Origin: Yuukianura sp. NJ FZ-2021
Lineage: Eukaryota
Assembly (NCBI GenBank): GCA_046563655.1
Contig: CM102288.1
Coordinates: 806,001 to 870,000 of the forward strand
DNA: 64,000 nt
Direction: 5' to 3'
The position numbers were made by a program, and so were the translations under genes. Shown here one piece after another: positions 1-53,100 of the stretch. Under the pieces are notes generated by a model, which did no database searches, had not been told where the DNA came from, and saw only the letters and a program-made list of their open reading frames with translations. Positions within the stretch are counted from its first letter, which is position 1, and every line of letters starts with the position of its first letter.

Positions 1-3000
1 TCTTACTTACCAGAATTATTTGACGAGGATTGAGCTGCTGCTCCGCCATTAAGTCCCTGCATCAGGGTGAAAACGTCAGTCTCACTGGCTGCAAGTGGAA
101 AGAAAAAGTTGAGATGAAACTATTGCTGAAAATGCTGTTTTTTTAAACTTTTGAAATCTTTTCAATCAATGACTTCCTCAAGTCGTATGACACACTTACC
201 AGTTTCCGCCAATATCGTCGTATTCCCAAGAACACAATTGTTCAAAGCATTTTGAGCCTGCACGTACATCAAGACACAGTTAAAACATCAACTTTTGCAA
301 ACTTCAATTGTTACATAATACACAAAAAAAGTACACTTTTGAAAGATAAAAATGGTTTTCATCTCTTACAGTTTGCGTCACTTGGGTCGAATACTTGACT
401 AGGGCAATTCCGTGGTTCAAATACAAATGGAATTTCGTCTAAAACAGCAAAACCGCATTAAAAACCATTAAAAACAAGTCCCACATTTTAAATTTCCTAA
501 GTAAATCTAAAAATCCAGTCTTACCAGAGGTCCATGTTGTTGACAGAGAGTCTTGAGAGTTGAGCCATCAATTTGCGGCGTCAAATTTCTAAGTAGGAGC
601 CAGTAATGGCCATTTCCAGGGTTAGAGCCCCACGAGGCAGAGCCTTGCTGCTGCTGCTGTGCATTATTACGATACGTATTGAAGGAAGGGTTTTGCTGCT
701 GCTGACTGCCAGAGAAGTTGCCAGCATTGGAAGTATTTCCTGAAGTACTTTTCTGTGGTAATCCCATGCCTGGTGGCGGACGGTTGGCCCCACCTTGACC
801 CACGGACGAGTACTCCCATGGATCTCTCTGTCTCACACCCCCCATATCATCTCCCCAAGACTTTGTCGAGTTTAGCTTGGCCATTGAGCTGCAAATTCAA
901 ACCCAAACACATCAATTCCCAATTCATGCAACTTTCCACTATCTCCTTACTTTGCCATGGTAGTTGAGCTTCCAGCAGGAGTGAAACTCCAAGTGTTGGA
1001 GCTGAGGCTGAGAGGAGTTGAGAGCGTATCGGCAGCCGAAGCGGTTGGTTGTGCCTGTTTATTGAAAATCTCTGAGGCATCCTTAATAGCGGCAAGACTT
1101 AGTGGTGAGCGAACCACCTAAAGTAAAGAATTCATTTCAAACCTTGTTTTCAAACAGAATAACTAAAAAGCGTACCGATCCAGGCGTGAGAGTGGGATCA
1201 TCCTCAACTGACTTGAGTATTGAGTTGCCCTTCCACGGTTTCCCTGGCTCAAACTCAGGAACTAAATCCCCAAAGGAACCAAAGTCATTGGCTCCAAGTT
1301 GTACCTTGTTGCCTGAATCATCACTTGTGTTTGTATTAGAAGAGTCTGTAGGCCAACCATCACCGCCAGTTCGTTGAACACCCGTAGACCAAGTACTGTT
1401 ACACATCAAAACAACCATTTTAAATCCAGCATCAACATTCCACAAATGTTTTCTAAAAATCCGAGCTTACTTATCGGACTGTCCAAGAATCAAGCTCGAA
1501 TTATTTTTAAGAAGACCTCCAGAAGCGTTATTTGTCTGTGGGCCTGGTGCACGGCTAAAGTCTGATCCTAAATATGAAAACACAAGATTAATTGAGTGTT
1601 TTTCAATTAATCAAACTAATTTTTTACTTACCGAGATCATCCTTCTCGAGTGAAGGCACTCTGGTCCACTGCGTCAGTCTTGATGTTTGTTGATGTGAGA
1701 CAGGGCCATCCTTGAGACCAAAATCTTGTCCAAAGTTGCTCTGGAGAGAGAGCATGGGATCCATCACATTGGAACTCGCGTTGTTCACGGACATGACAGG
1801 AGCGTTTTTGGTGAAAAAGTCGTTGTTCCCCTGCTGATTTCCAACCGAGGCTGCCAAACGGTGTTGCTGATGCTGCTGCTGCTGCTGTTCCTTGGCGTGC
1901 ATCGCTTGTTGAGCTGAGATTTGATTCTACAAAAACACACAAAATTAACACTTTTCACACATTAACTTTTACATTGTCCTTACATGAAGATTATTGATCA
2001 ATTGTTTTGTCTTTGTGATTTGGACATTGAGTTGAAGCCCTGCTGTGCAATTGGTCGACTTTGACATTTGGTGTTGGGCCTGAGACAACTGCTGGAAGAT
2101 CTTGATCTGTTGGAGAAGCTATGAAAACACACATAAAATTAATCAAAGTTAATCAAAACTAATTAATCACACTAATTAGTTAATTACTCACCTGATTTAA
2201 CAGGTACAAACTTTGTGGAGGCAATGGGTGTTGAAGGATTTGGGAATTCAGGTAGCCTGCCTGCACAGCCATTTGGATTTGTTGAACGAGCATCTTCAGT
2301 TGGGTCGATGTTGGCGAGTTATTTGGCTGTCCACGAACCTACCATATTCACAAAAGTCAAAATTAGTTCAAAAAACTTTTTTTTCGAAATTTTTTTTCAA
2401 GAATTTTCAAAATCTCAATCTTCTCACATTGTTCGAGTTGAACGGATACTGGAGAGCTGGAGCCTGCGGTTGTTGCTGTTGAGACAGCATTTTCTGTAGC
2501 ATCGGATTCATTCCTCCTCCTCCCAGATTTGGATTTCCCATCATATTGTTACTCAATGAATTTCCAGCACCAGGAAACCCACCAGAATTTCCAGGAAACC
2601 CACCACCGCTCCCACCACTTCCTCCACGCTGCTGCGGATTCATGAACGAATTGTTGCCACCAATGGGCCCACCATTGGGACCCATGTTGAGTCCACCCAT
2701 GTCAAAGTGGTCATCCGGTGGGCCACCACGGCGTGCCCCTTGCATCGGTGGTCCATTCCCACCGCCCATTCCCCAGGGGGTACCCAGAGCATCCATTCCC
2801 CCACCCCCGCGACCCCCACCTCCCATTCCCCCCATGTCCAAATTGTCAATAGCATCAGAGAGGTGCATTGCTGAAGCACGCAGAGCCAACTGGTCAATGT
2901 CTTCCTTCTGGAGCTAAAAACACACAATCAAAAACATTTTCATAAATGTTTCAAAATTTTTGAAAAATGTTCCCAAAAAAGTTATGTTTTTGAAAATAAG

Positions 3001-6000
3001 AGGTCCCAAACAGTGTGAAGATTTCCCGCGACAGATAATTCACAAATAGTCCAAAAACTGCATTTAAACAAAATACCTCGTTTCGAAATGCCGCCAAAAA
3101 AACGAAAACGTTGAAAATACGTAGCGTAAAACGTAAAACTTCCAAACTACTAAACAACATTAACGAAGAAATGTTTTTTTGCAGACACGTTTGAGAAGGT
3201 CATGCGCCAAGGACGGTTAAAGGAACAAGTAGGGTCTCAAAATTGAGAAATACACTCGTAAATTAGCAAAAAAGAACAAAGCAGCATGCAAAAAGCTCAA
3301 CAAAAATTAAAAATTGACAATAAAGCTCTAAAAAGCTCTTTTCACTAAAAATACTAAAAAGCATTTTAACTAAAGCAAACACAAAAATAAATAGAAAACC
3401 TTACCCTCAACCCAGAAATGTCTGACAAAAGCTGTAAAGCCGAAGGCTTTCCGCTTGTCCAGAACTCCTTATGGTGAAAATTCTTACTACCATTTAAGTA
3501 CCGCTAAAAAGGGGAAGAAGGAACGAAAAAAACATAAAATTTCAAATAAAATAAAACAATAAATCAAAAACCAAATTAAAAAAGTATAACAAAAAGTGGG
3601 CGAAAGCGGTAGTGCAGAATTTGGTGCATTAAATAACATGTATTCCAATGTGTTAAGGAGCAAACAAGGAACTGGAATGCTGGAAATGTGTCTTTGAAAA
3701 CAGGAATTCAACTCCGCAGTTGCTTAAATCCTTCAAAATTTCAAAAATCGCCAAAAATCAAAAATCTATAAATAAAAATCTTCCAGTCCACCATTATCCC
3801 AATACACAATTTGCACCCTGTAACTCTAACTTTTGAATTCGAATTACCGAATTTCTTGAATTACCGAATTTTTTGAACTACCGAATTTCTTGAATTACCG
3901 AATTTTTTGAATTACCGAATTTTTGGGTGGAGCTCCCCAGTTGGAAGTGTCCACAACTCCATCGTCACCCCAGCCGCCTTGGCCACTTTGGTTGGTTGGC
4001 GTCTTTGGTTTGCCCCAAGAATGCTGCTGCTGTTGTTGTTGCTGCTGCATTTGTCCATCATTGCCCCAAGAATTGAGCTTGTCATCGTTCCAGCCATGCT
4101 GATCAGCATTTCCATTGTACAAACCTTGCTGCATTGGAGGACCTTGATTTTGCCACCCATTTCTACAAAAAATGACACAAAAAACGCATCGATCTCCAAA
4201 ACCTCCACAACAAAAACGTCAAAACTCAACAACAAAAACTTCAAAATCTCCATTTTTTCTACCTGTTTCCATTGTTATTTCCTCCGCCGTGACCCCAAGG
4301 TGGATTCCCTCCGTCCATTTTATTTGGCAATCCACGATTGGCTGACATTCCACGCTGCTGCGGTGGCTGTTGTTGTGGTGGCTGCTGTTGTTGTTGCTGC
4401 TGTTGCTGTTGTCCAGGAAGTGTATTTCCCCAGAGGGAAGTTCCATCATCGTAATTCGGAATATTTGGAATGACTCTGCGTTGAGCAGGAGGCGAGATCT
4501 CGTCCCACGCTTTTTCCTTTGGCCCACCATGTGGTCCCACTCCCATATGATCCCCGGTGGGACCATTGGTCGTGCCCCACTGCTGCTGCGGGGGTTGTTG
4601 TTGCGGTGGTGGCGGTTTGTTCCACATTCCTTGATCCATTTGACTATTGTTCATTCCACCGCGGCCTCCATTTTGACTTCCACGGTCACTTCCAGTAGAG
4701 CCCCAATTGTTTGGTCCTCCAATTTGATCTCCACGTCCCACTCCATTGACAGTACTGCCATTCCCACCAACTCCGCTCCCAATACTGTTCCAATCTGAAG
4801 GATCCTTCTTCATGGGAGGAGCATTCCAGTGTGGATTAGTCGACTGTTCACGATTCGGTTGTGGTGGTTGGATTTGTTGTTGTGGTCCATTGCTGGCTCC
4901 ACCCATCCACTGACTACGGTTTCCTCCGTTATCATTCGGTTGCTGTGCAGTAGGAGCTGGGATATTGTTGGCTGTAGCCGGTGGAATTCCATTCCAAACA
5001 TTAGAGCTATCACTCTCATCTTCTTCTCCCCAAGTACCACCTAGAGTAAAGTGATTAAAATCAGGGTGTCGTTGGTTTAAACCAGTTGGTTTAAACCATG
5101 GTTTAAACCACGGTTTAAACCAACTGGTTTTTTTAAAAAAACCATTGGTTTAAACCAAATCAAGAATTTTATGCAAAATGATAAAAAAAATTGAAAATAG
5201 TTTGACAGGAGCTTTGTTTTTGTACTTTTCTGTCAACCTATTTTTAGTTTTGCTTGAAAAACTATAACCTCTTGCTGTTTCCAGTGTATTTTCAGAATTA
5301 GACCGCCTTAAACGCATTCAAAGTTCAATGCGTCATTTCATTTTAAGGGTAAAATCGTTCGCAGTTTTGAGTTAATTGAACAATGAGTGGCGGTAGGAAA
5401 CGTGACATCGTTTGGTTAAGCTTCCAGGAATTTGTTTCTTGTGACCGAAAGGGCAGTAGGGCAAAATGTAACGCCTGTAGACTAGAAATGGAAGGTCAAG
5501 TGGCAATTTTTAACTGCAAAGGTTCCGAAAATTGTAATGGATTCCACTAGAAAAACGCAGGCACTGCTTCCTATTCATTATTTGCCAATCTGTAATGTAA
5601 TTGAACTCACCGTTACTTATGCAGCAGTTGAAAACGAAAGGTTTTCAGGAATTTTAGCAGTCTTTACGTAGTACAGAGACAAACGGGAGTCCCGTTACGG
5701 GACCACTCCGAAAAATTTTGTTTTTGAAACACTGTTTTAAAACGACATATCTGCTTCGGATTGGTAGAACTTATATTGTTTTAGTTTAGTTTAAATTTCA
5801 ACTTGATTCGAAAGGGTACCTAATGAAAATATACCAGATATCCTTGGCACCCATTTTTAATTTATTTCTACACAATTATTCTTCTTCGCGCATGAATTCT
5901 CATGCTTTGGTTTAAACCAAAAAAACCAAAAAAACCTGGTTTAAACCAAAAAAACCGGTTTTTTTGGTTTTTTTGAAAAAAACCGAAAAAACCCGACACC

Positions 6001-14574: not shown

Positions 14575-14649
14575 GGTCTTGGTAGCTCAGTGGACAGAGC
14601 AAGCTCCCCGGAATGGAGATAGGCGTGGGTTCGATTCCCACCCAGACCA
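14575..14649 (+). other. tRNA-like sequence (pseudo-tRNA or tRNA-derived element) with Pol III A and B boxes
   Basis: A box TAGCTCAGTGG, B box GGTTCGATTCC, D stem GCTC/GAGC, T stem GTGGG/CCCAC, acceptor GGTCT(T)GG/CCAGACC+A, T5 run at 14654-14658. The anticodon arm is non-canonical (loop CCGGAAT, no U33) and the acceptor has a bulge. Confidence 0.75.
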
Positions 14650-38819: not shown

Positions 38820-38991
38820 TCGTTAATTGTTTGCTAATTGCTCAGTGGAATTTTAATCGGTAATCAACTTTGAATCCTCTGTTTTCTATTTCTGTATGAT
38901 TATTTATAACGAAATGAATCCGGCCGTGTTACTGGCTCCAAACAGAAATTAATTTTGCTTTTTTTAACTTTACAGATCATAGGGGAACACA

Positions 38992-40992
38992 ATGTCGTTG
39001 GCTGAAGAACTGCTGGCTGACTTAGAAGAAGGAGACGATGATGAAGAAGCGCTTGAAGCTGAACTGGATGTGAAGGTCGGTATGGAAATGCATGCCAGTT
39101 CAGGGAATGGACATCAGGGAAACGGATCTAATGAAACTCCAATGGAAATAGACAAACCTATAGTAAAAAGTAAGGCCCTGACGATTGAAAATGGAATTGA
39201 TTGCTTATTTTTCTTTCATTCTGTGTTTGTATGACGTTATTTTCAGAAGCGGTGGAGCCTGTTGCACTGGAATGTGTCCGTCAGATATGTCATCTTTACG
39301 ACTCTGACCACCTCAAGGACATTTTAAGCCAGATTGAACAAAATAATCAAATTCCACGCAGAGCGGAGGATATTTCTGGACCAGTTGAAGCCGACCCAGA
39401 GTATCAGCTGATTGTAGAAGCCAATTCACTTGCTGTTGACATTGACAATGAAATCAATACTATTCACAAGTTTACAAAAGACAAGTACAACAAACGATTT
39501 CCGGAGTTAGAGTCGCTTGTCCCTGGTCCATTGGACTATCTCAAAACTTGCAAGGAATTGGGAAATGACTTGGAGAAGGCAAAAAACAATGTCAATCTTC
39601 CAACGTTTCTCACGCAAGCTACAATTATGGTTGTTTCCGTCACAGCGTCAACGACACACGGGTGAAATTACTATCATTTTTACTAGATTTGGGTTTATCA
39701 CCGAGTTTTGAACTTTCAAATCCTTTTTCAGGCAAATCTTATCCACGGATGAAATGAAGAATATTTTTGAAGCCTGTGACATGGCACTGGAGCTGAATGA
39801 AATCAAATTGAAGATCTACGCATACGTTGAGGCCAGAATGGCTTTCATTGCTCCAAATGTGTCTGCCATTGTAGGGTCTGCCACCGCTGCAAAATTGATG
39901 GGTAACGATTCTGAAACGTTACAATTTTATACTAAGAAAAAATCGAAATTCATTCGTTTTCTAGGTATTGCTGGAGGGTTGACCAGGTTATCCAAAATAC
40001 CGTCATGCAATGTCCAAGTTCTCGGAGCTCAAAAGAAAACGTTGGCAGGATTTTCTCAAACTGCAATTCTTCCACATACTGGTTTCATCTACTACTGTGA
40101 CCTCGTTCAAGACACTCCTCCGGTAAACTTGCTGTTTTAAAACTTCATGAGTCTACTTTTGTAGTTTGTTTTCAGTTTTCGTAACTTTCAAGAATTTGAA
40201 TCTTTTGTTCTTTCAACTTTCTTCGGTTTTAGGACTGGCGCTCCCGAGCAGCAAAGATGGCAGCAGCAAAATGTGTTCTGGCTGCTCGCGTGGACGCTTG
40301 TCATGAAAGTCAAGATGGATCTGCCGGCAGACGATTCCGGGAAGACATTGAGAAGAAGCTCGAAAAATTACAAGTTAGTCAACTTTCTAAAAAGTAAGAA
40401 CTTAATTTCAAAGTGTGACAATTGATCAATCTTGTATGTTCAGGAACCTCCTCCAGTCAAGTTTGCTAAACCACTTCCGAAACCAGTCGATCCGCCTAAG
40501 AAACGTCGTGGCGGGAAACGAGTTCGGAAGATGAAGGAACGATTTGCCGTTACCGAGTTACGGAAACATGCAAACCGAACGACTTTTGGAGACGTAAGGG
40601 TCTATTTCAACCAAAAAATTTTGTCTTTCAAAATCAAAATCAAAGTTTTTAATTTTCAGATTGCAGAAGATGCTTACCAAAGCGACCTTGGCTACAATAG
40701 AGGTCAGTTGGGAAAATCCGGCACCGGGAAAGTCCGTGCAGCTCCGGTTGATGAAAAAACGAAAGTCCGAATTTCCAAAACCCTTCAGAAGAGTCTTCAA
40801 AAGCAACAAGTCTACGGTGGTTCTACAACTATCAAAAAACAAGTTTCTGGAACTGCTTCCAGTGTTGCTTTTACGCCTCTCCAGGGATTGGAAATCGTAA
40901 ATCCACAAGCAGCCGAACAGAGAGTGAACGAGGCTAACGCAAAATACTTTTCCACAAGTGGAACATTCTTCAACGTTACCACGAAAAAGTAA
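38992..40992 (+). CDS. PRPF31: U4/U6 snRNP protein Prp31, multi-exon
   Basis: MSLAEELLADLEE; GPVEADPEYQLIVEAN; KYNKRFPELESLV; LTQATIMVVSVTASTT; KKRRGGKRVRKMKER; SGTASSVAFTPLQGLEIVNPQA. Confidence 0.97.
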
Positions 40993-41174: not shown

Positions 41175-44100
41175 TCATTGTTTTCCGTATTTTGAAGAGA
41201 ATGGGCCTTCACTTGTCTGAACTCCGCCATCTTGTGATTGGTGAAGTCCAGCGTTGAAGGCCAGATAAGGCACGCTTTCACTTTGTATTGTTTGACTTGC
41301 GCTTTCACTCGGAGATTTCTTGACTGGTTTCGTTTCATTCCGATACTGAAGTGCAAATTTGAGCTCTTTCCAAATTTCTAACCAAATGGAACGCTAAAAA
41401 AAGAAAAATTTTCAACTTACTCAATATTTTCAAATTGGTAGAAAAAATTCCTAGGTGTTTCAAAATTTTACGTTTAGTTTTAAAAGCGAAAGTTAGATCG
41501 TAGCGTCATGCTGTCTATAAAAAGTTTGGATTCAATAAAAGTGAAACGTGAAAAGTGAAAGTGCAGAAAGCTTACCTCGAATGGTTTTGAACGTTAGTGT
41601 TGAATACACTTTTTTCAACCATTTTCAAAAACTGGTTAGTTGTTCTTTGTTCAAACACATTGTTTAGTATTGTTATTGGTTAGAAGACAATTCAATTTCC
41701 TCCAATCCCGTTTTTCGCCTAACCTGCGCGCCTTCTTTTCTAAGTTTTCGCGCTTTCCACATAAATTCAAAAATGCCCATGATGATTGCCATGATGCATC
41801 CTCCAAGTAGTACGACAAATACGCCTCCTACGTGACCCAAGGTCAACGGTTTTGCTCCGAAATCTGAAGACGCTTCAGCCTGATTTTCAAAATTTCAAAA
41901 AAAAAAAATCAGTTTTTAAAAAATTTACTTTTTTTTTGTAAATTTTAACTCTTACTTTACACTTTCCACCTCCACGATCCTTCCACCATCGTTTTTTGAG
42001 CATTTCCAATTCCCCTGTTTGAGCCATATCGAGCAACTGAATGTTAAAGGTATCGCGGAATTTCCAACCTGAAATTTCAAAAATTCGGGTTTTCACAAAA
42101 ACGTGCCAGAGATTTTGTGGAATTTGGATTTGAACTGTTTTTTGAAAAAAAAAAATGTCAAAAATCAGTTTTTATTGAAAGCGTGTGTTTCCTCTTACCT
42201 TTTCTAAATCCAATTCCAAATCCCTTTGAGTCCAATGGAACTCCAAGTTGAATTAAAGTGCAGTCACGCTCCACTTCATACTCAATTGAAGAAGATTCCA
42301 TGAAGAAAGCAAATTCACCTTTGGAATTTCGCACTTTCTCTACACCGTCTTTCGTGCTCTTTACATGTGGAGACGGAGACATCGCTGCCATGTTCTTCCC
42401 GATTTCAGCGTACAGTGGAAATTTTGAATACTGGAGATGCATTTTTGAAATTTAGGTAAATAGTCTTGAAATTTTTGAATATCGTGACCTTTGACCTTAC
42501 TTTGAAAAAATCGTTGGTGCTTCCTGACATAAGTGTTCCGTATTTGACTTTTGTTTGTTTGGGAAGATCTTTGATGTCCTTGATGCCTTCAACCATGCCT
42601 TCGCGGGTCAAAAATGCTGCCAAGTTGGCAGTATATGACGAAATCAAAATTAAAGTGAAAAACCACCAGATTCCGGCCACCATCCGAGTTGAGCCGGCCC
42701 TGGAAGTGCCACAACAAGGTCAAGTACAACAGGTTTTGAGGTAGGTGGGGTCATGCGAGGTCAAAGGCCACTGACAAAACGGTACTATGAAGCGGTACTG
42801 TGAAGCGGTACCGTGAAGCGGTACTGTTGAAGGATGCTTACTTAGGTAGGATGTCACATCCTTGTTGCATAAGCGTTCCCAGTGTGAACCACAAGCTGTT
42901 TGTGAGGTGCAGCGTAAGCTCCAGTTCAGCGGGAGGTTCAACGCAAGGATGAGGATTCAGCCATTCATAAGGAGTGATTCTGCCAAACACAAAAAGTTAC
43001 CGTATTTATTCAACATGCCACAAATTCAAAATTTTTATAGTGCATTTCTAAATTTTTTGAAATTTCTAAATTGTGAAACCTTAGAAAAAATACGGTAGAC
43101 TTAAATTATGTCGCCGTAGGAGTTGGAGCATAAAAAAAGTACGGTAGAGGAGCAGCCAAAACTACGCGGGGTCAAATCTCAAATTCAAAAAAAGTAACGG
43201 TGTATGACCAACAGGGTCAAAGGTCAAGGTTGAGAGGTCAAAGGTCAAAGTGGAAAGGTCAAAGGTAAAAGTTGAGAGGTCAAAGGTCAAGTTGCTACGT
43301 ACTTGGGCAGTATGTCGCTCCCTCCACCCACAAGTGACCCCATGACCAACCAATGGATATTTATTAAACTAAAGGGATTCTCTAGCACTTCCTCGTCATT
43401 ACTTCCACTGGAGGTCACTTGCCACTCCTTTGGCTCAATTCTACAAAATTTTCCAATATTTCAAAAACGAACTTTGAAAAAAAGTTTCGAAATTTTGACT
43501 ATATTTTACCTTGCCAAAATGAAAAGGACGAGTGTAACTCCGAGATAGGCAGTGGCCATGTAGATCCAAACTTCGTAGTGAAATGGATCCAAAAACGAAA
43601 ATAAATTCGGAGCACTTTTTTCTGGCTTCTTGTACAAAATACTGATTCCAATGTTCATAAACGGCAGGGAAAAGTCAATCTGAAAAAAAATTTGTATCCA
43701 TTTTGAAAAACTTTCACTTTTTGAAAAAAAGAAAAAAGTTTTCCAAAAACTTACAACGCTTGCCCTCTTTGAAGTGATACTAATGTCACCTATTGCTAAA
43801 TCAGCTTTCTTGAAAATAGGAAGAAAGAAAATCAAAATCAGATCTTTTGACTTCATAATTTTAATTTAAAACAAAATTAACCAAAACTAAGTTGAATTAA
43901 TTATGATTAAGTTAATTAGTAACACTTACTTCGTCCAGAATTTCTCCCACGAGTCCATTCCATCCATGTTTGTAGTTTGTATCGTTCGTCTCTGAGCCCA
44001 TGTTCCCATCTTCCACTTTCCGAAATTTGTATTTAAAACCTGTTCTATTTGATAACGCTCCAATTAAGTCCACTGCATAACCTATAGGATCCTCATCGTT

Positions 44101-47100
44101 GTCAGGGAACATGACGTATGGCTCGCTCTGAAATGACACCAAAAATTTCAAAATTTTGTAAATTTTGATTTTGGAAATTTTGATTTTGGAATTACATTTT
44201 TGGAAGTAACGATGAGTGTCATTCCCTGGAGTTCTTCAGTTCTGTGCCTCAACGTTTCGTTTTCTAATCGCAGCCATTCAAGATGCTTCGGTAGGGATGG
44301 ATTCCACTCTCCAATTTTCGTAATATTCTTTCCAAAAAAACGTAAAATCAAAATTCAGTTGTTTATTTCCAAATTTTGAACTTTCCGAAAATTTTTCGAA
44401 AAAGAAGAGAAAGTCCTACTGACCTTCTTCGATATTTCCATGACGTCCAACTTGAACTTTCTCCGCTTTCCATCCGGATCGATATGAATAGTTCCACTGA
44501 GGCCGTCGAATGTAACCTAAATTAGTTTTAATTATTTATATTATATATTTTAATTATTTTTATTATATTATTATAATTGAAACCTGTTTCAATGCAGTAA
44601 TGAAATCTTGTCCCTGTGACCAAGGATACACTGTGTGTGAATACGTATCACAGTTGAGTATTTCTGGCGCAAATGCTTGCGGCATTTCAATTGGTTGATG
44701 CAGCCCTAGCACAAATAGTTCCATTGCGTCATAAATCAAGGCCGTGTCTACCTGCAGGCGATGTTTTAGAACAATTAAAATTTTTCAATTTTTGAAAAAA
44801 TTTTCAAAATCTGATTTTTACCATAATGGTAGTGAACGTGTAATTCGGAAACGGTTTTTGATCATACTGAAAATTGAGAAACTTCGGGAGTACGAAGGGA
44901 TCTTCTCCGAAGAAATGCGGAGATCTGCGGGAAACTGCTGAGCGAAAGTGCCACGAATCCAAGATGCTTTGAAGTTTGAGATTGGTTGGATCAACCAATC
45001 GCAGAGCAGTGACATTGGCCAATGAAAATGCTTCATCTCTCGTGTCCAGAACATGGATGTCCAGAGATGTCAAAAAGTACTTGTGATTATGCGTCAACAT
45101 GTTCTCGGTTTTGGCGTCTTGAAAGATTCGAGGAAGCTTGGAAGACTGACAGTCCAGAATGACGCGGTCAATGTCATTGTAATTTGTTCTCAAATCTTTC
45201 ATCAATGGTCTAAAATGGAGTTTCAAAATTTTTCAAATTTCAGGAAAAAATTTTTTTGGAGAAAGTTGGAAAAAACTTTCACCTGAAATCGTCTGCTTCT
45301 TCTCCAACAGGTAGCTGCTTGACGACGTACTGCTTAATCACTTTCCCGGTTAATTCAAAAATTCCTTGCAATCGGACCAAACTTTCATTGTTTTCGTAAA
45401 TTATTATAACACTGGACCATCCCCAGTCTTGAATCACGTCAGCATAAGCCTGAAATTTCAAAAAAACGAAAAAAAAAATTGAAAAAACAGTTTTGTCAAA
45501 TTTTCTGTCTGGAGTTCTAAGAATAAAGTAATAAAAATGACAATCATGAAATTTTTGCCGGAATGCGAAATGACACACAAAGCTATAACTTTCTCCGTCT
45601 GCATTTTCACTCTCCTCCTCCCTCCCTCCTCCTCCTCCTCCTCCCTCCTCCTCCTCACTCCACATTTTGTGTGTCATATCATTTGCCTTTAATTCAGATC
45701 AAACCGAATGAGAAAAGTTTGGACGTAAAATCAAAGATAAAAGCCTGCAAACTTCTTTTTTTGGACGAACTTGTCCATGAGTAGAAAGTAGAAACGAAGA
45801 TGCTCCAGTTTCTGGTATGGAACTTTTCCAGTCCGTGATGCATCAAGATCATGTTCAGAACAGAACTAAAAAAAACATGTTTGAGACAGCAGCATATCCA
45901 TAAGAACACTTTATGCATTTGACTTTCCTTGGCCCTCGCTTTCTCCATTCCTCTCTTACTTAAGCCTACACTTTAACTTTTGTCGTCAAACAAATTTTGA
46001 ACTTATATTTTTTTCGTTCACAACTTTCGACAATTTTTGCATGCCATGTCTTCACCAATTCGTCACGCTTTTACAAAACTATGAAGATATGCGATTTTAA
46101 TCCGACTTTTGGCAAGCTTAGGCTAGGTTTAGGCTCAGGATTTTGCAAAGTGGCCATTTAGCTAAGACGTGACTTTGACCTCAAAAGCCTTCTCTCACGT
46201 GACTCTTTTCTAGAAAAATCTTCAGTGAAAGTTATGCAAAAGAAAATTGCATCAGTTCTGTCAAACACGGAAACAAAAAAAAAATATATTGAAGTAAGGA
46301 TTTAGTACACACTTGTGTCCATTGGTCAATTAATGTAATAAATTTAAATAAAACATATAAAAACCCAAAATGACCTTGACCTTTGCTATTTTCAAGACCA
46401 TAATAGTAGTGCGTAATTTTGATATGTCAATTGAGTTTTTTTTTTAATTTCAGAAAAATAATTATAGCCTAACTTTTTTGTTTTGAAAGAAAGTTACCAT
46501 GCTGAGTGTGGCCGGATGGGGGAACAAGTTGATTAGATATTGTCCTTGACTTCCTCTAAAGTCCCACTTGGTTTCAATGCGCGGAATATTGAACACTTCA
46601 GCAACGGACTGAACGTGACTCGCAGTGGTGGGGGTTTGTGGACCAATTAACCCCCCAATTCCTTCTTTCAGCAAAGCACACACTGGAAATCAACAGAACA
46701 ATACTCTTAATTAATAGGCTTAAACTGAATGTCTATTCCGTTTACACATACGCAATATACTCCTCAATTCAACCAAACATAGACACATCCGCTAATTCAG
46801 CTGAATACATGCAGTCAGAGATGCCTCAATTCAACCGAACAGCCACTTTACGCCCACACAAAGACAAAAACAGAAACAAGGAGAAAGTGGATGGGTCAAA
46901 TTGGCTTAATTTGGGAAATGGCGCAACAAATTCTAATTTACTTAACAAACAAACAACCTAACCAATTTTTAGTCTATTCAAATATTCAAAAAACTTTTCC
47001 CATTTTTTTTTCAAAAGTAGCTTTTTTGAAAGTTTTGTGTTTTAAAAAACTTTGGAATTTTTTCTCTTGTTTTGGAGAAAGTTTTTCATGCTGTGAATGT

Positions 47101-50100
47101 TTAAAGAGTAGTTTGAACATTTTTGGAGTACGCAATTTGGTTTTATTTTCAAACCGTAGGTAGTCCCAAGAGAGCTTGTCATTTGTTTTTATTACCAAAA
47201 CTTTTTTTTAGAAAAACAACTTTAAAAAACGGGCTCCTGTCATCAGATTTTTTTTAGAAAAACAAATTTCCCTTCTCTATTTTGGATAAAAACAGAAGTG
47301 AAAGCAAGAAGATTTTTAGAATCAAAAGAAAACAAGATTTTTTTTGCTACAAGTAGAACCTGTCACTTTCTCACTCAGCTATGATGTGTTACATGGTTTT
47401 CACATTTTCATTTTTCAAAAAAGTTAGTTTTTTAGAAAAACATTTTTGAAAAATTGTTTGAATAACGTGTGGTTGTTTCATAGGCTGAAGAAAGTGGAGA
47501 AATTGTGAAATGGATCGGATATGGAGAAAGAACTTTCACCGAGGGAGAAAGAGAGCAGCGGGGGTGGTTACTGTTGCCAAAATGTTTGTAACGTAACCTA
47601 TTTTTGGTGTAACTAGAAGGTTACAAATGGTTACACCATGTTTCATGTGTCATGTGGTTGCATTTTACAGTTCTTAGGAAACATTAGCATAACAATCATC
47701 ACAAATAGCTACATTTGTGACTTACTGACGTTGTAAACTTGTCGGTTAATAACCGAAACTTCCTTTTCTTTTTGCAACTCAGGAAAATTTAACCACAATT
47801 CAAAACACACTCAAAAGTTATTAAACTGCAAAGCTGTCGTCAGTTGAATCTTGACTTGTGGATAAAAAGTTCCATTTTTTGAAATTATGAAAGTTGCTAA
47901 ATTTATTCTTTTTTTTTCGACATTTTTGATCGTTTCAATTGCCTATTCAGGTAAACTACTCTAAAAAACACAAACACAATTTGATTAAATCACAAACACC
48001 AAAATTCAAATTCACAAAAAAGAAAAGAAAATGAAATTAAAAAATAAAATAATAAAAAATCTCCAAAAACTTTGGACTTACAAAATTTTGTTAATTTAAA
48101 AAACGCGAGTGGAGTGGAAAAAACTTTCATATAAATTTGTTAGTTATATGCTTTTTTATTTTTTCTTTAAGATGGATTCGAGTGTTTTCAATGCAATTCC
48201 TACAAAGACAAAGATTGTGACGCTGCTCAGCCGCCTGCACACTACCTCAAACCGTGTAATATTAGCGTGACCAAAGGAATTTGCTTCCAGAACACAACTG
48301 GCTTGGACATTGACACGACGTGTCAAGAGGTCAGATCTCAATGTCAACCGACTCCCTTTAGAAACTGTAACAATGTCACCAATGTCACCCAATGTCAACC
48401 GACTCCTTTTACGCCCTGTGACGATGTCACCCTGGCACAAGAAATTCCCGTTACAACTTTCATTTGTCGCAAGTCAGTTACTTCCGTCTACGGAACTTTT
48501 GTGTCTGAACGAGGAGACACCAAAGTAGAACGGCGTAAGTTTGTACAAACATGACTTTAAGACAGTTGTTTTAAAAAATTCATGTTTTCTGAAAATTCCA
48601 ACTTGAGAATTCCGAGTGTAAACAAACTTTCTCTTTTTAAAATTTTTGTCGCTTTTTATTTCAGGCCAAACGAAAGCTCGCGTAGCGCGTGACTGTGGTT
48701 ACATTTTTTCTAAGACGGAGGCCGCGGGATGTTTTAGACGCGGAAATGGCGGAAGCTCTCAAGTCAGTTGCCTCTGCCGAAAAAGCGGATGCAACCATGC
48801 TGAGCTACAAACTTCGCTTCAACGCTTCCTCCTCTTCATGCTTCTGCTAATCCTGGAATTCGTCTGGACTGTTCTAAGTTACAACTTCTAAGTTACAACT
48901 TGTAACAGTCATTTCTTGATGAAACTCAAACCAACCAGTTCTAACTTGTTACTAAAAACACTAAAACTTCTCAATCTCTGTCATCATTTTTACGAAATAA
49001 ATTCTCTCTGTCTTCATTGGATTTCTTTCCTCCAGGGAGAAAGTTGCTCTTTTACTTTCATAAAAAAAAAACTGAGTCGGAGAAAACGCATCTGAGACGC
49101 AAGAGAAAGAAGTCATTTACAACACACTTTACAAGTGAAAATTTACAAGTTGTTTGAGTAGTTCCGAAATAGCTTTTTAAAACAAGTGCTTTGAAGAAAG
49201 AGATGGAGGGAGTAACTATAGCGGGAAAAAAATGAAGGGAGTAACTATGAACATGACTAGGCTTGAGAATATGGAGGGAGTAACTATGAACATGACTTGG
49301 CTAGGGAATATGATGGAGGGAGTAACTACTTTTGAAACAGTTGGAGAGGGGGAGGAAGTAACTATTTTTGGCGGGAAAAGGAAGTGGAGAAAATTACTTT
49401 TGAAAATTAGAGGCAAGAGAAAGTTGTAGAAATATTTCGTGCTTGTAGCACTATTTTGAAGTACGTGTTTAAGAATTACAAGATAAGTTATGTTAGAATT
49501 AGTTTTAATTAATTCTCACTAACTTTTTGGTTTTTGGGGGAAGAAAGGAGAAAGTTATCTTTGTAAGATTTTTTCTGGTTAAAAATTTTTCTTTTGCGTT
49601 TCCTGTTACACAAATGATTACACAAATAAAATTGAATTGAGGGAGAAAGCTAAAAATTGATCTTAGTTTTGCTGTCGCCGCTTCTATAACAGCCTCTGCT
49701 ATGCTGCTTTCTTTTCTTTAATGTTCCACGAATTGTGAAAGTTTACAACTTCCTCTGTCAGCACATTGGTCAGCACCGGATATCAAACCTGTCTAGCCGC
49801 CTTCCTTCAACTTTCGCCCAACCGATTAACTTCGCTTCACTAAAAAAAACTTTCAAAGGAAAATTCTTACTTTTGAATTTACAAACTTCAAAACTCACGT
49901 TAAAGCCCGAACAATTTCAAAACTGTTCTAAAATGTAACAGCCGAGGGAAAGTGAAAGTTCTTTCACTTCGCACAGCTTTTGTTAATGAAGTGACAGCTT
50001 CTTCATAAACCATTTTTATGTTAATTTGTGTTTCAAATATATTAATTAACAATATAAATAATAAATAATAGTTGTAGTTTTGTACCTTGTTTGGAGGCGT

Positions 50101-53100
50101 TGTAGGAATCTCCTGTTTGAACTTTCTCCAGCACTGCACGGAGGCTGTACTTAGGAAAAGCGTTGGGATCAGAATTGACTCGATCTGCGGCGTGTACAAA
50201 AGCCGTTTCTTCGTACGCATCCCAAATATCAAACAGTCCACCTAATCCAACACAGCAAACATAAAACTAACTTTAATTAACTTCTTAACTCCGCTAATTA
50301 ACTTAACTCCACTAATTAAATTAACTCCACTAATTAAATTAACAGCTAAACCAGAGACTGGCTCAAAACAAAAACTCAAACCAAAAAGTTACTTTAAGTT
50401 AATTTTGATCACGTAAGTTTTGATTAGACTTTGTGTTTGGAAAATCAAGCACGATAAGGATCGTGGTTTTTCTTATACAGCTTTCACCCACGATTTGTAA
50501 TTAGCTTTTTTAGTTCAAAAAGAAAGTGGGATTTCAGCACTTGGACTTTCTAGTTTGTCTCATTTCGAAACGCATCGTTGGTTGAGTTAATTCAACTTGA
50601 CATTTGCCTTCGTTTCCAAGTTTTTGCTCAGAGTGTTACAGCATTTTCATAGTTTTGTTGTTGAGTGTTACGACATGAATACGGTATCACTGCCTCTTAA
50701 CCCTTAACATTAACAACCAATGTTATTTTCCACTCAACAGAACTTTCTCCTGTTTTCTAATTTTCACTTTTGCTCAAACTATTATATTTAGTATACTAAA
50801 CTTTTGGCTCCAAAACAGGCTCTGTTCTGAAAATTACCAACAACACAGAGATAGAATTGGGTTTTATGTAGTACATTCGGAATCCTTTGTAATGAACATC
50901 AGAGTGTAGGTTTTGACTAAATTTGGAATTTTCAGTTCCATTTCCATCATCGTGCATTCGGAATGCAAAGTGCCTTTAGTTTCTCCCAAATTGGGCAACT
51001 TTCTCTATCCTACTTTTCCTCGTTTTCTAGACTTCTAGACTTTTTAGACATTAGAGTAGTGGTGAAAGTAGAATTCCTAGTCTTTGTTCTTCTAACGGCG
51101 GTTCCATTGGGAAAGTAATGAAATGAATGACAAGAGATTAATCGAACGAGATCCTGTCTCCAAGGAAACACTTCAAGTCAAATGGAACAGAGTTCTATTG
51201 TTCTCTCGAGGCATCTTCCTTTCTCCACTTTCACTCTTTTTCTAACCAGGAAATGACAAATAACTCAAATAAAGAATACTCCAATTTGTCATTTCCTGCT
51301 CTAACTCACGCCATTTTGAGTTTAGCTAACGACGAATTAGAGTTACACTTTCAAAAAATCTCCAAACAACTTTTTTTTGGAAGTTGAAAGCAGTTAGAGA
51401 AAGCACTAGTACAGGAAAGAGACAATTTCGGAAAAGAGAAATGCTGAACTTCGTCATGTTGAAAACGGAAGGAAGAGGAAATATTTTGACGGAGATTTAC
51501 TTCGTTGGAGGCGACTACTTTCTACTTACTGAAAAAGACAATGATAGATTGCTAAAAAGACAAAAGATTCCGTAAACTGGGATAAACTCAAACAAAGACA
51601 CAAAAACTTAAGTTCATATCCTTCTGTTAACTTTAAGTAATCTTAGTTTATCCTAACTTCAACTGAGAGTACTAAAAAATTGTATTTTTTGGAGATAAAG
51701 CGAACTGGTAAACAGTATGAAAAAAAGAAGAGTTTTTAGACCAAAAGGAAATAATGTCAAATTAATCGAAATTAATTGCAAGGAAAGAATTAATTGACAA
51801 ATTTTATCTTCGTGTTTTCTTTTTGCAATTTGTTCTGAAAATTTTCTAAAAAAAAATTTAGATTCAGTTTTGGAAAATAATTTTTACCAATATAACAACT
51901 ACATCTTACCCTGATAAATTTTTTTTGGTTAAAATCTAAGCTTTTCAACGCTACGAATGTGTGTCAACAGAAGCAGTTACATGTACCACGTACTTGACTA
52001 TAACCTTGCTTTTTTTTTCCAAAACTGTGTCAGACTTTTCGAAAAAAGTGGAATTTCAATTGCTTTTTGTCTTTCACAAGCCAGAACCAAAGGTGATAAA
52101 ATCTTGCACCCCCTGGTTCGTTGACTCTAACTCTTTTAGTTTTTTAGACGTTTTTAGTCTCAAGATTATGCTTTCGGAAGTAGAGACTAAACCTAAGGAA
52201 ATAAAAAGTTAGCCTTTTTGTGTTGATTTTCCTCGGTAACTTTCTCTTTTTAGACTTCAGCTTTTTGTCCACAAGGTTTTTGTTCTTGGACGGATGCTTG
52301 ATCCCTTTAGTTTAATTGTTATCTCGTACAAAATGGTTTGGAGTCAAGGGAAAGCTTCTCCTCGCTTTTTGTCTCTTGGCATTAAGAACTGTTTCTACTT
52401 TTACTTTTTCGGAAACCGAAAGAGAACAATTTTTCCCTTTTTTCGGTTGACAATTTAAAAGAAAGTGGCAAAGATCCAAAAGGAGAAGGCAGGGACCAGA
52501 TAAAAATAAACTGCATGGCATGCCGCCTCTTTACTTCAAGTGTTTCCTTTATTCAGGAACAGACTTTTTGGCAAGGTACATTTGTGGATGGATGTTAAGG
52601 TTTATGCTTCATTTCCTGGGTTCACTACTCCTCAAGTACACAACTCAACCAATACCATAGCACTGCTTTCCATAGTCCATGTTCATCTGATAAACTAATA
52701 CAAATGGACAAGAGTTTGGCTAGGAACGGGATTCAGAAGGAAGGAAATGGGGAAAGCAGCATCATGCAACTAAATGAAATCACATTCCAAAAATTCCTTG
52801 TTTACAACCTCAATTTTAAAACGGATTTCAGCTAACCAAATCCGAACATGCCAAAAAAGTTTTATTGCTTTGTTCGAAGAAACATGCATGGGCAAGCCAA
52901 AGTTTCTCGACCCTCCTGTAAATTATTTATCTAAAAGTGATGTTGAGAACTTTTTTTTACATGTTACTAAAAATTCCAAAAGAAAAGAAAATCTATTCAT
53001 GACTTACAAGTGACACATTTTCGAAACTAAAATATTCTATTTATACATTTTTTAACACTATTTTATCCATTTCACGTCAAAATGTTTCCAAAACTGTGAG

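Follow-up and report, generated by a model that had tools for sequence, protein, structure and literature searches.

The window analysed here is a stretch of 64,000 nucleotides (nt) from Yuukianura sp. NJ FZ-2021 (GenBank assembly GCA_046563655.1, contig CM102288.1, positions 806,001 to 870,000). Its minus strand carries a gene that is, judged by sequence, a kainate-type ionotropic glutamate receptor (iGluR), in which two homologous exons, here called A and B, lie between the exons for M1 and M3, at the place of the M2 pore loop. No single determinant of calcium entry, conductance and polyamine block in non-NMDA receptors is better known than the glutamine/arginine (Q/R) site, whose textbook switch within one gene is RNA editing. 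Exons A and B constitute a candidate for a switch of another kind, which is of relevance to glutamate-receptor biophysics.

A receptor gene with two pore-loop exons

The gene was delimited by similarity to arthropod receptors (Table 1). An ANF_receptor match (29.9 bits, cut-off 25.4) lies at 44804-45232, and the open reading frame carrying M4 ends at the stop at 41673. The M1 exon, both M2 exons and the M3 exon fall on successive positions of the Lig_chan profile, and the motif SYTANLAAF of an iGluR channel domain is read directly in M3. The Lig_chan-Glu_bd match covers a fragment of 20 residues and scores 21.4 bits, under the cut-off; for the S1 and S2 exons there are alignments to arthropod receptors. 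Concerning the subtype, exon B ranks the solved GluK1-3 and GluK5 chains first (expectation value E from 4e-10 to 4e-08), with GluA chains at 5e-06 and weaker. Moreover, wherever related proteins carry a subtype name it is always kainate 1, 2 or 3, the rest being called 'glutamate receptor 1' or 'hypothetical protein' or having no name. A tblastn search with a related protein found only two copies of the pore-loop unit in the gene.

The initial annotation had described two homologous exons of 138 nt, open, in phase 2/2 and bordered by AG and GT, between M1 and M3, and every one of these details was recovered on the minus strand, the in-frame translations of both exons being identical to the peptides given there. 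The M1 exon ends at 43510 with ATT TTG GCA AG followed by GT, its last AG being part of a split Arg codon. Exon A follows an acceptor ttttgtAG, its first base A finishes this codon (AG|A), and it ends with CCC AA before the donor GTACGT. Exon B splits the same codons between an acceptor tttggcAG and a donor GTAAGC. Each exon therefore runs from the third base of an Arg codon to the first two bases of a Lys codon (AA|G), which the first G of the M3 exon (42699) completes in either case.

The A and B peptides align without gaps, with 16 of 45 residues identical (36%; BLASTP E 5e-08 for this single comparison), and both match Lig_chan positions 26-62/63, exon B with 27.4 bits (E 3.3e-06) and exon A with 15 bits (E 0.022); the cut-off of this profile is 30.8 bits, and pieces of 45 residues are expected to fall short of it. 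Over its full length, exon B can be aligned to M2 of GluK1 and GluK2 in their solved structures (E about 4e-10), and a profile of three A-type sequences (exon A and two relatives, see below) aligns to GluK3 residues 570-602 (E 6.8e-06). In the GluK alignments, the first Gln of MQQG is residue 38 of the exon peptide, which we take to be the Q/R site. The filter reads Q38-Q39-G40-C41-D42 in exon B and G38-G39-G40-S41-D42 in exon A, so that the difference announced by the initial annotation at the Q/R position and the next one (QQ in B, GG in A) is borne out by alignment to solved chains. Exon A keeps the Asp at +4 and the DILPK end, and in place of the NPHPC motif of the M1-M2 linker it has a Ser/Thr-rich acidic stretch. 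Exons A and B are homologous copies of the M2 pore-loop exon that go back to an old duplication.

Mutually exclusive tandem exons are recognized as neighbouring internal exons that are homologous, of similar length, and share phase and splice-site type (after PMC3228551). Exons A and B are homologous and equal in length (138/138 nt), share phase and splice type, and are separated by a single intron of 323 nt.

Table 1. Features of the predicted receptor gene in the window, with counterparts in L001, a metagenome contig described in the text
Feature	Position in window	Strand	Evidence or remarks	Position in L001	Amino-acid identity, window to L001
Kainate-type iGluR gene (predicted), amino-terminal domain to M4 and stop	41673..50266 (approximate; start imprecise)	-	tblastn of Timema gene model P0001 and 18 other arthropod receptors		
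Constitutive exon, S1 end and M1, 170 nt	43510..43679	-	Lig_chan-Glu_bd and Lig_chan positions 2-24	1666-1835	89%
Intron 1, 69 nt, GT...AG	43441..43509	-	A-rich, weak polypyrimidine tract ahead of exon A; L001 counterpart 128 nt, unalignable		
Exon A, putative alternative M2 pore-loop exon, 138 nt	43303..43440	-	conserved in L001 and in P0110	1964-2101	69%
Intron 2, 323 nt, with 21-nt tandem repeat of TGACCTTTGACCT units	42980..43302	-	L001 counterpart 142 nt, without repeat		
Exon B, canonical M2 pore-loop exon, 138 nt	42842..42979	-	GluK1/GluK2 M2 alignment	2244-2381	89%
Intron 3, 142 nt	42700..42841	-	13-nt tandem repeat (42780-42832) and one TGGCCTTTGACC copy (42759-42770)		
Constitutive exon, M3 and S2 start, 199 nt	42501..42699	-	Lig_chan 65.8 bits	2535-2733	91%
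Inverted copy, AGGTCAAAGGTCA on the transcript	42485..42497	-	positions +4 to +16 in the intron that follows the M3 exon		
S2 exon				2829-3050	73%

Conservation of exon A in related sequences

Relatives of exon A were sought by several routes. A word-based protein search with exon B returned one protein, the Timema gene model P0001, and the same search with exon A returned none among 15 candidates. A HMMER scan with exon A over 1.84 billion representatives gave 7 hits at E up to 0.001, two of which, both from short contigs, are clearly of the A type. P0108 (54 amino acids) is 72% identical to exon A, and P0110 (105 amino acids) is 77% identical over 30 residues and contains an open A-type exon in which LMGAGSDVLPK is followed by KYV, that is, by read-through of the donor site as in the window. 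The three A-type sequences were then aligned and used to scan metagenome contigs, which led to the contig of P0108, here called L001 (3223 base pairs, bp). L001 is, on the evidence of its sequence, genomic DNA of a related species and covers the orthologous stretch of the gene. It has the order M1 exon, exon A, exon B, M3 exon, as in the window, with all exons equal in length and with AG and GT intact at the four borders of the alternative exons. The initial annotation had named a disrupted or absent exon A in relatives as evidence that would count against its proposal; in L001 exon A is open, of equal length and flanked by AG and GT, which speaks for the proposal.

The comparison of the window with L001 also bears on selection. 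The introns differ in length (69 and 128 nt, 323 and 142 nt, 142 and 153 nt in the window and L001, respectively) and their alignment is no better than forced. Synonymous sites are saturated in every exon, the proportion of changed synonymous sites (pS) being 0.61-0.78. In exon A, changes affect 22 of 30 synonymous and 22 of 105 non-synonymous sites (Fisher p 2.1e-07), which gives a pS of 0.73, a proportion of changed non-synonymous sites (pN) of 0.21 and a pN/pS of 0.29. The corresponding pN and pS values are 0.07 and 0.61 for exon B, 0.06 and 0.65 for the M1 exon and 0.17 and 0.67 for the S2 exon; the M3 exon has a pN of 0.08. The open frame alone is weak evidence for exon A, because a random sequence of intron composition is open over 45 codons with a chance of about 10%. 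However, length and splice sites are kept and pN lies far below pS, and exon A therefore behaves as a translated exon and not as a relic. By these measures exon A is a real coding exon under purifying selection, and exon B is likewise selected. The old duplication under selection proposed in the initial annotation is thus upheld, both by the pN and pS of exon A and by the retention of the tandem pair in L001.

The same data make it very improbable that exon A is an unused relic of the duplication, a pseudo-exon, with only exon B spliced in. Such a reading could draw on the lower family score of exon A, on its weaker polypyrimidine tract, and on a non-synonymous evolution three times faster than that of exon B. 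However, in a relic at saturated divergence pN should have approached pS, and stops, indels and losses of splice sites should have accumulated, as in the flanking introns; exon A has instead kept its length, frame and AG/GT borders. Moreover, an open A-type exon occurs in a third source (P0110), and the pN of exon A is close to that of the constitutive S2 exon. Among the three A-type sequences the M2 helix is invariant, while linker and filter residues vary, the filters being VGG in the window and MTA and MGA in the relatives.

Paired pore-loop units in Pancrustacea

The initial annotation conveyed the sense of a one-off case. This does not hold, as the same exon pair is widespread in pancrustacean gene models. 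P0001 holds two pore-loop units in tandem, and with its 93-residue stretch we gathered 107 related receptors among 160 candidates: 19 have two tandem units, 84 have one and 4 could not be parsed. The downstream unit has QQ in all 19 two-unit models, mostly as MQQGSDIAP. At the Q/R site of the upstream unit, nine models have Q, six have A (Hemiptera, Timema) and four have R (Hymenoptera). All 122 units that could be parsed in 103 other receptors retain the second Gln, and the A type of the window is unusual in this respect; the nearest exceptions seen are LMAAG in a Timema douglasi fragment and LMRQTT in Aphidius.

Equal-length isoforms with one or the other M2 unit are predicted in 10 genes of 9 species (seven insects, a springtail and a barnacle), namely in Anabrus, Lycorma, Bemisia, Halyomorpha, Rhodnius, Aphidius, Ischnura, Folsomia and, with two genes, Amphibalanus. 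Examples are XP_021964383.2 and XP_021964384.2 of Folsomia candida, and XP_043188365.1 and XP_043188366.1 of Amphibalanus amphitrite. In eight other sets (Homarus, Palaemon, Uloborus, Argiope, Parasteatoda, Liolophura, Tribolium and Anthonomus) the isoforms are alike in M2. One cluster with alternative units includes a protein named by its source as kainate-type subunit 1D. In the Drosophila subunit 1D the Q/R residue is Gln, and a transgene with Q changed to R does not rescue its function, according to a passage of bioRxiv 10.1101/2025.10.06.680643.

We also noted that the Hymenoptera combine a genomic Arg at the Q/R position of the upstream unit with a Gln in the downstream one (P0012, P0013, P0187, P0190 and P0182 from Vespa, Bombus, Vespula and Apis; P0199/P0104 from Aphidius), and that Aphidius has single-unit isoform models of both the Arg and the Gln type. 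If these units are used as alternatives, they would amount to a Q/R switch through splicing in an orthologue group that includes the protein named subunit 1D by its source.

Two-unit models could also be taken at face value, in which case both exons would stand together in the main messenger RNA (mRNA) as a constitutive pair and each subunit would have two tandem pore loops. Joint inclusion keeps the frame, the 19 two-unit models among the 107 receptors include RefSeq isoforms in six species that also have single-unit isoforms, and our analysis of intron pairing found no feature that forbids splicing from A to B. Nevertheless, we consider a constitutive pair to be improbable. The tetrameric iGluR pore has one M2 per subunit, and all solved GluK and GluA chains were matched once. 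Equal-length single-unit isoforms exist in the 10 genes named above; for Folsomia, Ischnura and Amphibalanus there is no both-unit model among the members listed, and transcript-derived copepod proteins (a cluster of Calanus and Neocalanus) have one unit. Ab initio callers, moreover, join in-frame exons by default, and both-unit models may be annotation artefacts of in-frame duplicated exons. Many RefSeq and ab initio models join both M2 units in frame (P0151, P0163, P0165, P0174, P0194, P0203 and others).

Concerning the descent of the A/B pair, 18 receptors of arthropods and molluscs were compared with the window, and the best whole-gene match was from Folsomia (425/926, 46%); the gene in question is one of those with alternative M2 isoforms. 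A tree was built from 65 pore-loop units over 45 columns, one mis-sliced row being excluded, and is poorly resolved. In this tree the three A-type units form one group (100/100) nested in the clade to which all 16 upstream units belong (99/92), and the two B units group with 10 downstream and 12 single units (97/91). This placement agrees with the gene order and suggests descent from an old pancrustacean pair, with orthology likely between A and the upstream unit and between B and the downstream one. The claim of descent is a weak one, because the A-type branch is long (2.34 changes per site), plain identity to the upstream units (15-17/45) is no higher than that to the downstream units (17-18/45), and the approximately unbiased test leaves A and B as a single clade, that is, as a lineage-specific duplication, unrejected (p 0.441).

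Proposed splicing, pore function and relation to known systems

We put at roughly 65% the probability that A and B are functional, alternatively used versions of a single exon for the M1-M2 linker and the M2 re-entrant loop, with each mRNA most likely taking one of them by mutually exclusive splicing and with exon A supplying the filter variant. Exon B would be the default form with the canonical filter MQQGCD. Exon A would be a fast-evolving variant in which small residues replace the glutamines at the Q/R site and the next position, and in which the M2 helix and the Asp at +4 are retained. The pair would be this lineage's version of an old pancrustacean arrangement, with an invariant Q form downstream and a changeable filter cassette upstream. 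The use of one exon at a time, with exon B as the default, seems to us rather probable in its own right; it is the most likely mode because there is one M2 per subunit, because the pair has the sequence features of mutually exclusive exons and because homologous genes are annotated with either/or isoforms. We infer on these grounds that exon A is included in mRNA and that the two exons exclude each other in the window gene. Regulated exons often have weak polypyrimidine tracts, and the tract of exon A is weaker than that of exon B and A-rich in both the window and L001, ending in a shared tttgtag.

Several observations weigh against this proposal. The Lig_chan score of exon A is just 15 bits, the word-based search found no relative for it, and A-type exons were found in three sources only. 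The variation among A types falls on exactly the filter residues, where it could reflect relaxed constraint, and the lineage-specific duplication mentioned above is not rejected by the approximately unbiased test. As to the mechanism, inclusion of both exons and omission of both preserve the reading frame alike, so frame-dependent decay cannot enforce exclusion. Steric exclusion was rejected, the introns between A and B (323 nt in the window and 142 nt in L001) being too long. No docking and selector pairing of introns conserved in both the window and L001 was found, the duplex energies being unremarkable or unshared. Finally, the isoforms of other species are computed models whose read support is not visible, and exclusion is unproven even there: six of the nine either/or species also have both-unit models, and the listed models of Vespa, Vespula, Apis and Bombus all contain both units.

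Other candidate mechanisms and repeats around the exons were also considered. U12-type introns were rejected, since the donors read as U2-type in both the window and L001. The 21-nt tandem repeat of intron 2 occupies 43215-43294, just after exon A, with 3.9 copies. The inverted copy at the start of the intron after the M3 exon pairs perfectly with these repeats, and with one G-U pair with the copy in intron 3, giving 13-14 bp of perfect or near-perfect RNA pairing. Neither this TGACCTTTGACCT pairing nor the sequence itself has a counterpart in L001. With up to one mismatch allowed, the window has 10 copies of the motif TGACCTTTGACC(T) against 0.26 expected; the motif is also the textbook form of a DR1 nuclear-receptor site (AGGTCA-A-AGGTCA) and does not occur in L001. 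Six of these copies surround the alternative exons within a span of 800 bp: four are in the 21-nt tandem repeat that follows exon A, another follows exon B, and the sixth is the inverted copy. The 13-nt tandem repeat of intron 3 consists of 4 copies (CGGTACTGTGAAG on the plus strand), fills a third of that intron and is without counterpart in L001. An editing duplex at the Q/R site of exon B was rejected as well, being neither conserved nor significant (fold z-scores -1.40 and -0.67). In L001, the LMQQG codons of exon B (2349-2365) have a 17-nt partner of 76% complementarity at 2425-2441, about 60 nt into the downstream intron, which resembles an editing duplex and is absent from the window.

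Elsewhere in the window, the tail-to-tail neighbour of the receptor gene is a predicted gene for a Prp31-type splicing factor (38983-40992, plus strand), with matches to the Nop domain at 64.7 and 120.7 bits and to Prp31_C at 127.7 bits. A Cys-rich open frame of 127 amino acids (48171-48554, plus strand), with no Pfam match, lies on the opposite strand inside the 3.4-kb intron of the receptor gene. A transfer RNA gene at 14576-14649 (plus strand, 41 bits) is the sole Rfam match at gathering score in the window.

An isoform with exon A would lose the glutamine ring at the narrowest point of the pore and keep the Asp at +4. An Arg at the Q/R site nearly abolishes calcium conductance, as stated in part of PMC13520880, and polyamine block is set by the Q/R residue together with the acidic residue at +4, as described in a section of bioRxiv 10.1101/2025.10.06.680643. 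We infer altered calcium permeability, conductance and polyamine or toxin block for channels with the A isoform, which would more probably act in heteromers than alone; changes in divalent permeability, conductance and block are to be expected because the Asp at +4 is kept and the glutamine ring lost. The altered linker of exon A may add regulation.

The A isoform might instead be real and yet non-conducting: pore-dead, dominant-negative, purely modulatory, or signalling without ion flux. A-type exons have neither of the two glutamines, the second of which all other parsed units keep; their filter varies around an invariant M2 helix, as if packing outweighed permeation; and the NPHPC linker is swapped for the Ser/Thr-rich acidic stretch. 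However, small residues at the Q/R site are not odd in themselves, as they occur in 14 of 84 single-unit receptors (Gly in 4, Ala in 9 and Thr in 1), and exon A retains the Asp at +4 and the DILPK end. On balance we regard a non-conducting isoform as unlikely.

Exon A is an extreme natural case of a glutamine-free filter kept by selection, and offers a natural test of what the glutamine ring is needed for. A wider proposal, which we put forward tentatively and at somewhat less than even odds, is that an ancient pancrustacean pair of M2 exons does by splicing what vertebrates do by Q/R editing. The downstream unit would be a fixed calcium-permeable Q form and the upstream one an evolvable cassette, which has a genomic Arg in Hymenoptera, Ala in both stick insects and Hemiptera, and G, T or A at the Q/R and next positions in the lineage of the window; GGG, TAG and GAG would represent an unstudied type of iGluR pore, and the arrangement would be undescribed in print. 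If this is true, cells could set calcium-permeable versus calcium-impermeable, or otherwise altered, kainate receptors through splicing factors, with a bearing on presynaptic KaiR1D-type autoreceptors and on block by insecticides and toxins.

The predicted pancrustacean kainate-type pairs are the closest parallel to the arrangement in the window. They too have two units of about 46 codons between M1 and M3, with MQQGSDIAP downstream and a variable filter upstream. However, their upstream units keep the second glutamine (QQG, AQG, RQG), whereas the A types lack both glutamines as well as NPHPC. The flip/flop exons of vertebrate AMPA receptor genes are likewise tandem-duplicated homologous iGluR exons that are used singly and double the number of functional subunits (outlined in part of PMC13520880); here the swapped piece would be the pore loop with the Q/R site. 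A-to-I editing of GluA2 and GluK1/2 also changes the residue at the M2 tip and yields two pore types per gene, according to passages of PMC13520880 and bioRxiv 10.1101/2025.10.06.680643. It alters a single codon by means of an exon-intron duplex and ADAR, whereas here a cassette of 46 codons would be swapped by splicing. Outside the iGluRs, the invertebrate NALCN gene produces alternative forms with different selectivity filters (PMC3557258). NALCN is a four-domain channel of another superfamily. Its filter switch reportedly works through mutually exclusive exons, and snail T-type calcium channels are said to do likewise.

Tandem exons that exclude each other are known already, among them cases in which a channel's filter is changed, and either/or M2 exons are widespread in annotation. 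Alternative M2 exons of arthropod kainate receptors were described nowhere in the literature searched; gene databases were outside the scope of that search, and a prior description is possible. Relative to the print found, what appears to be new is that the swapped piece of an iGluR is the pore loop with its Q/R site, and relative to the database models it is a cassette, kept by selection, that has neither glutamine.

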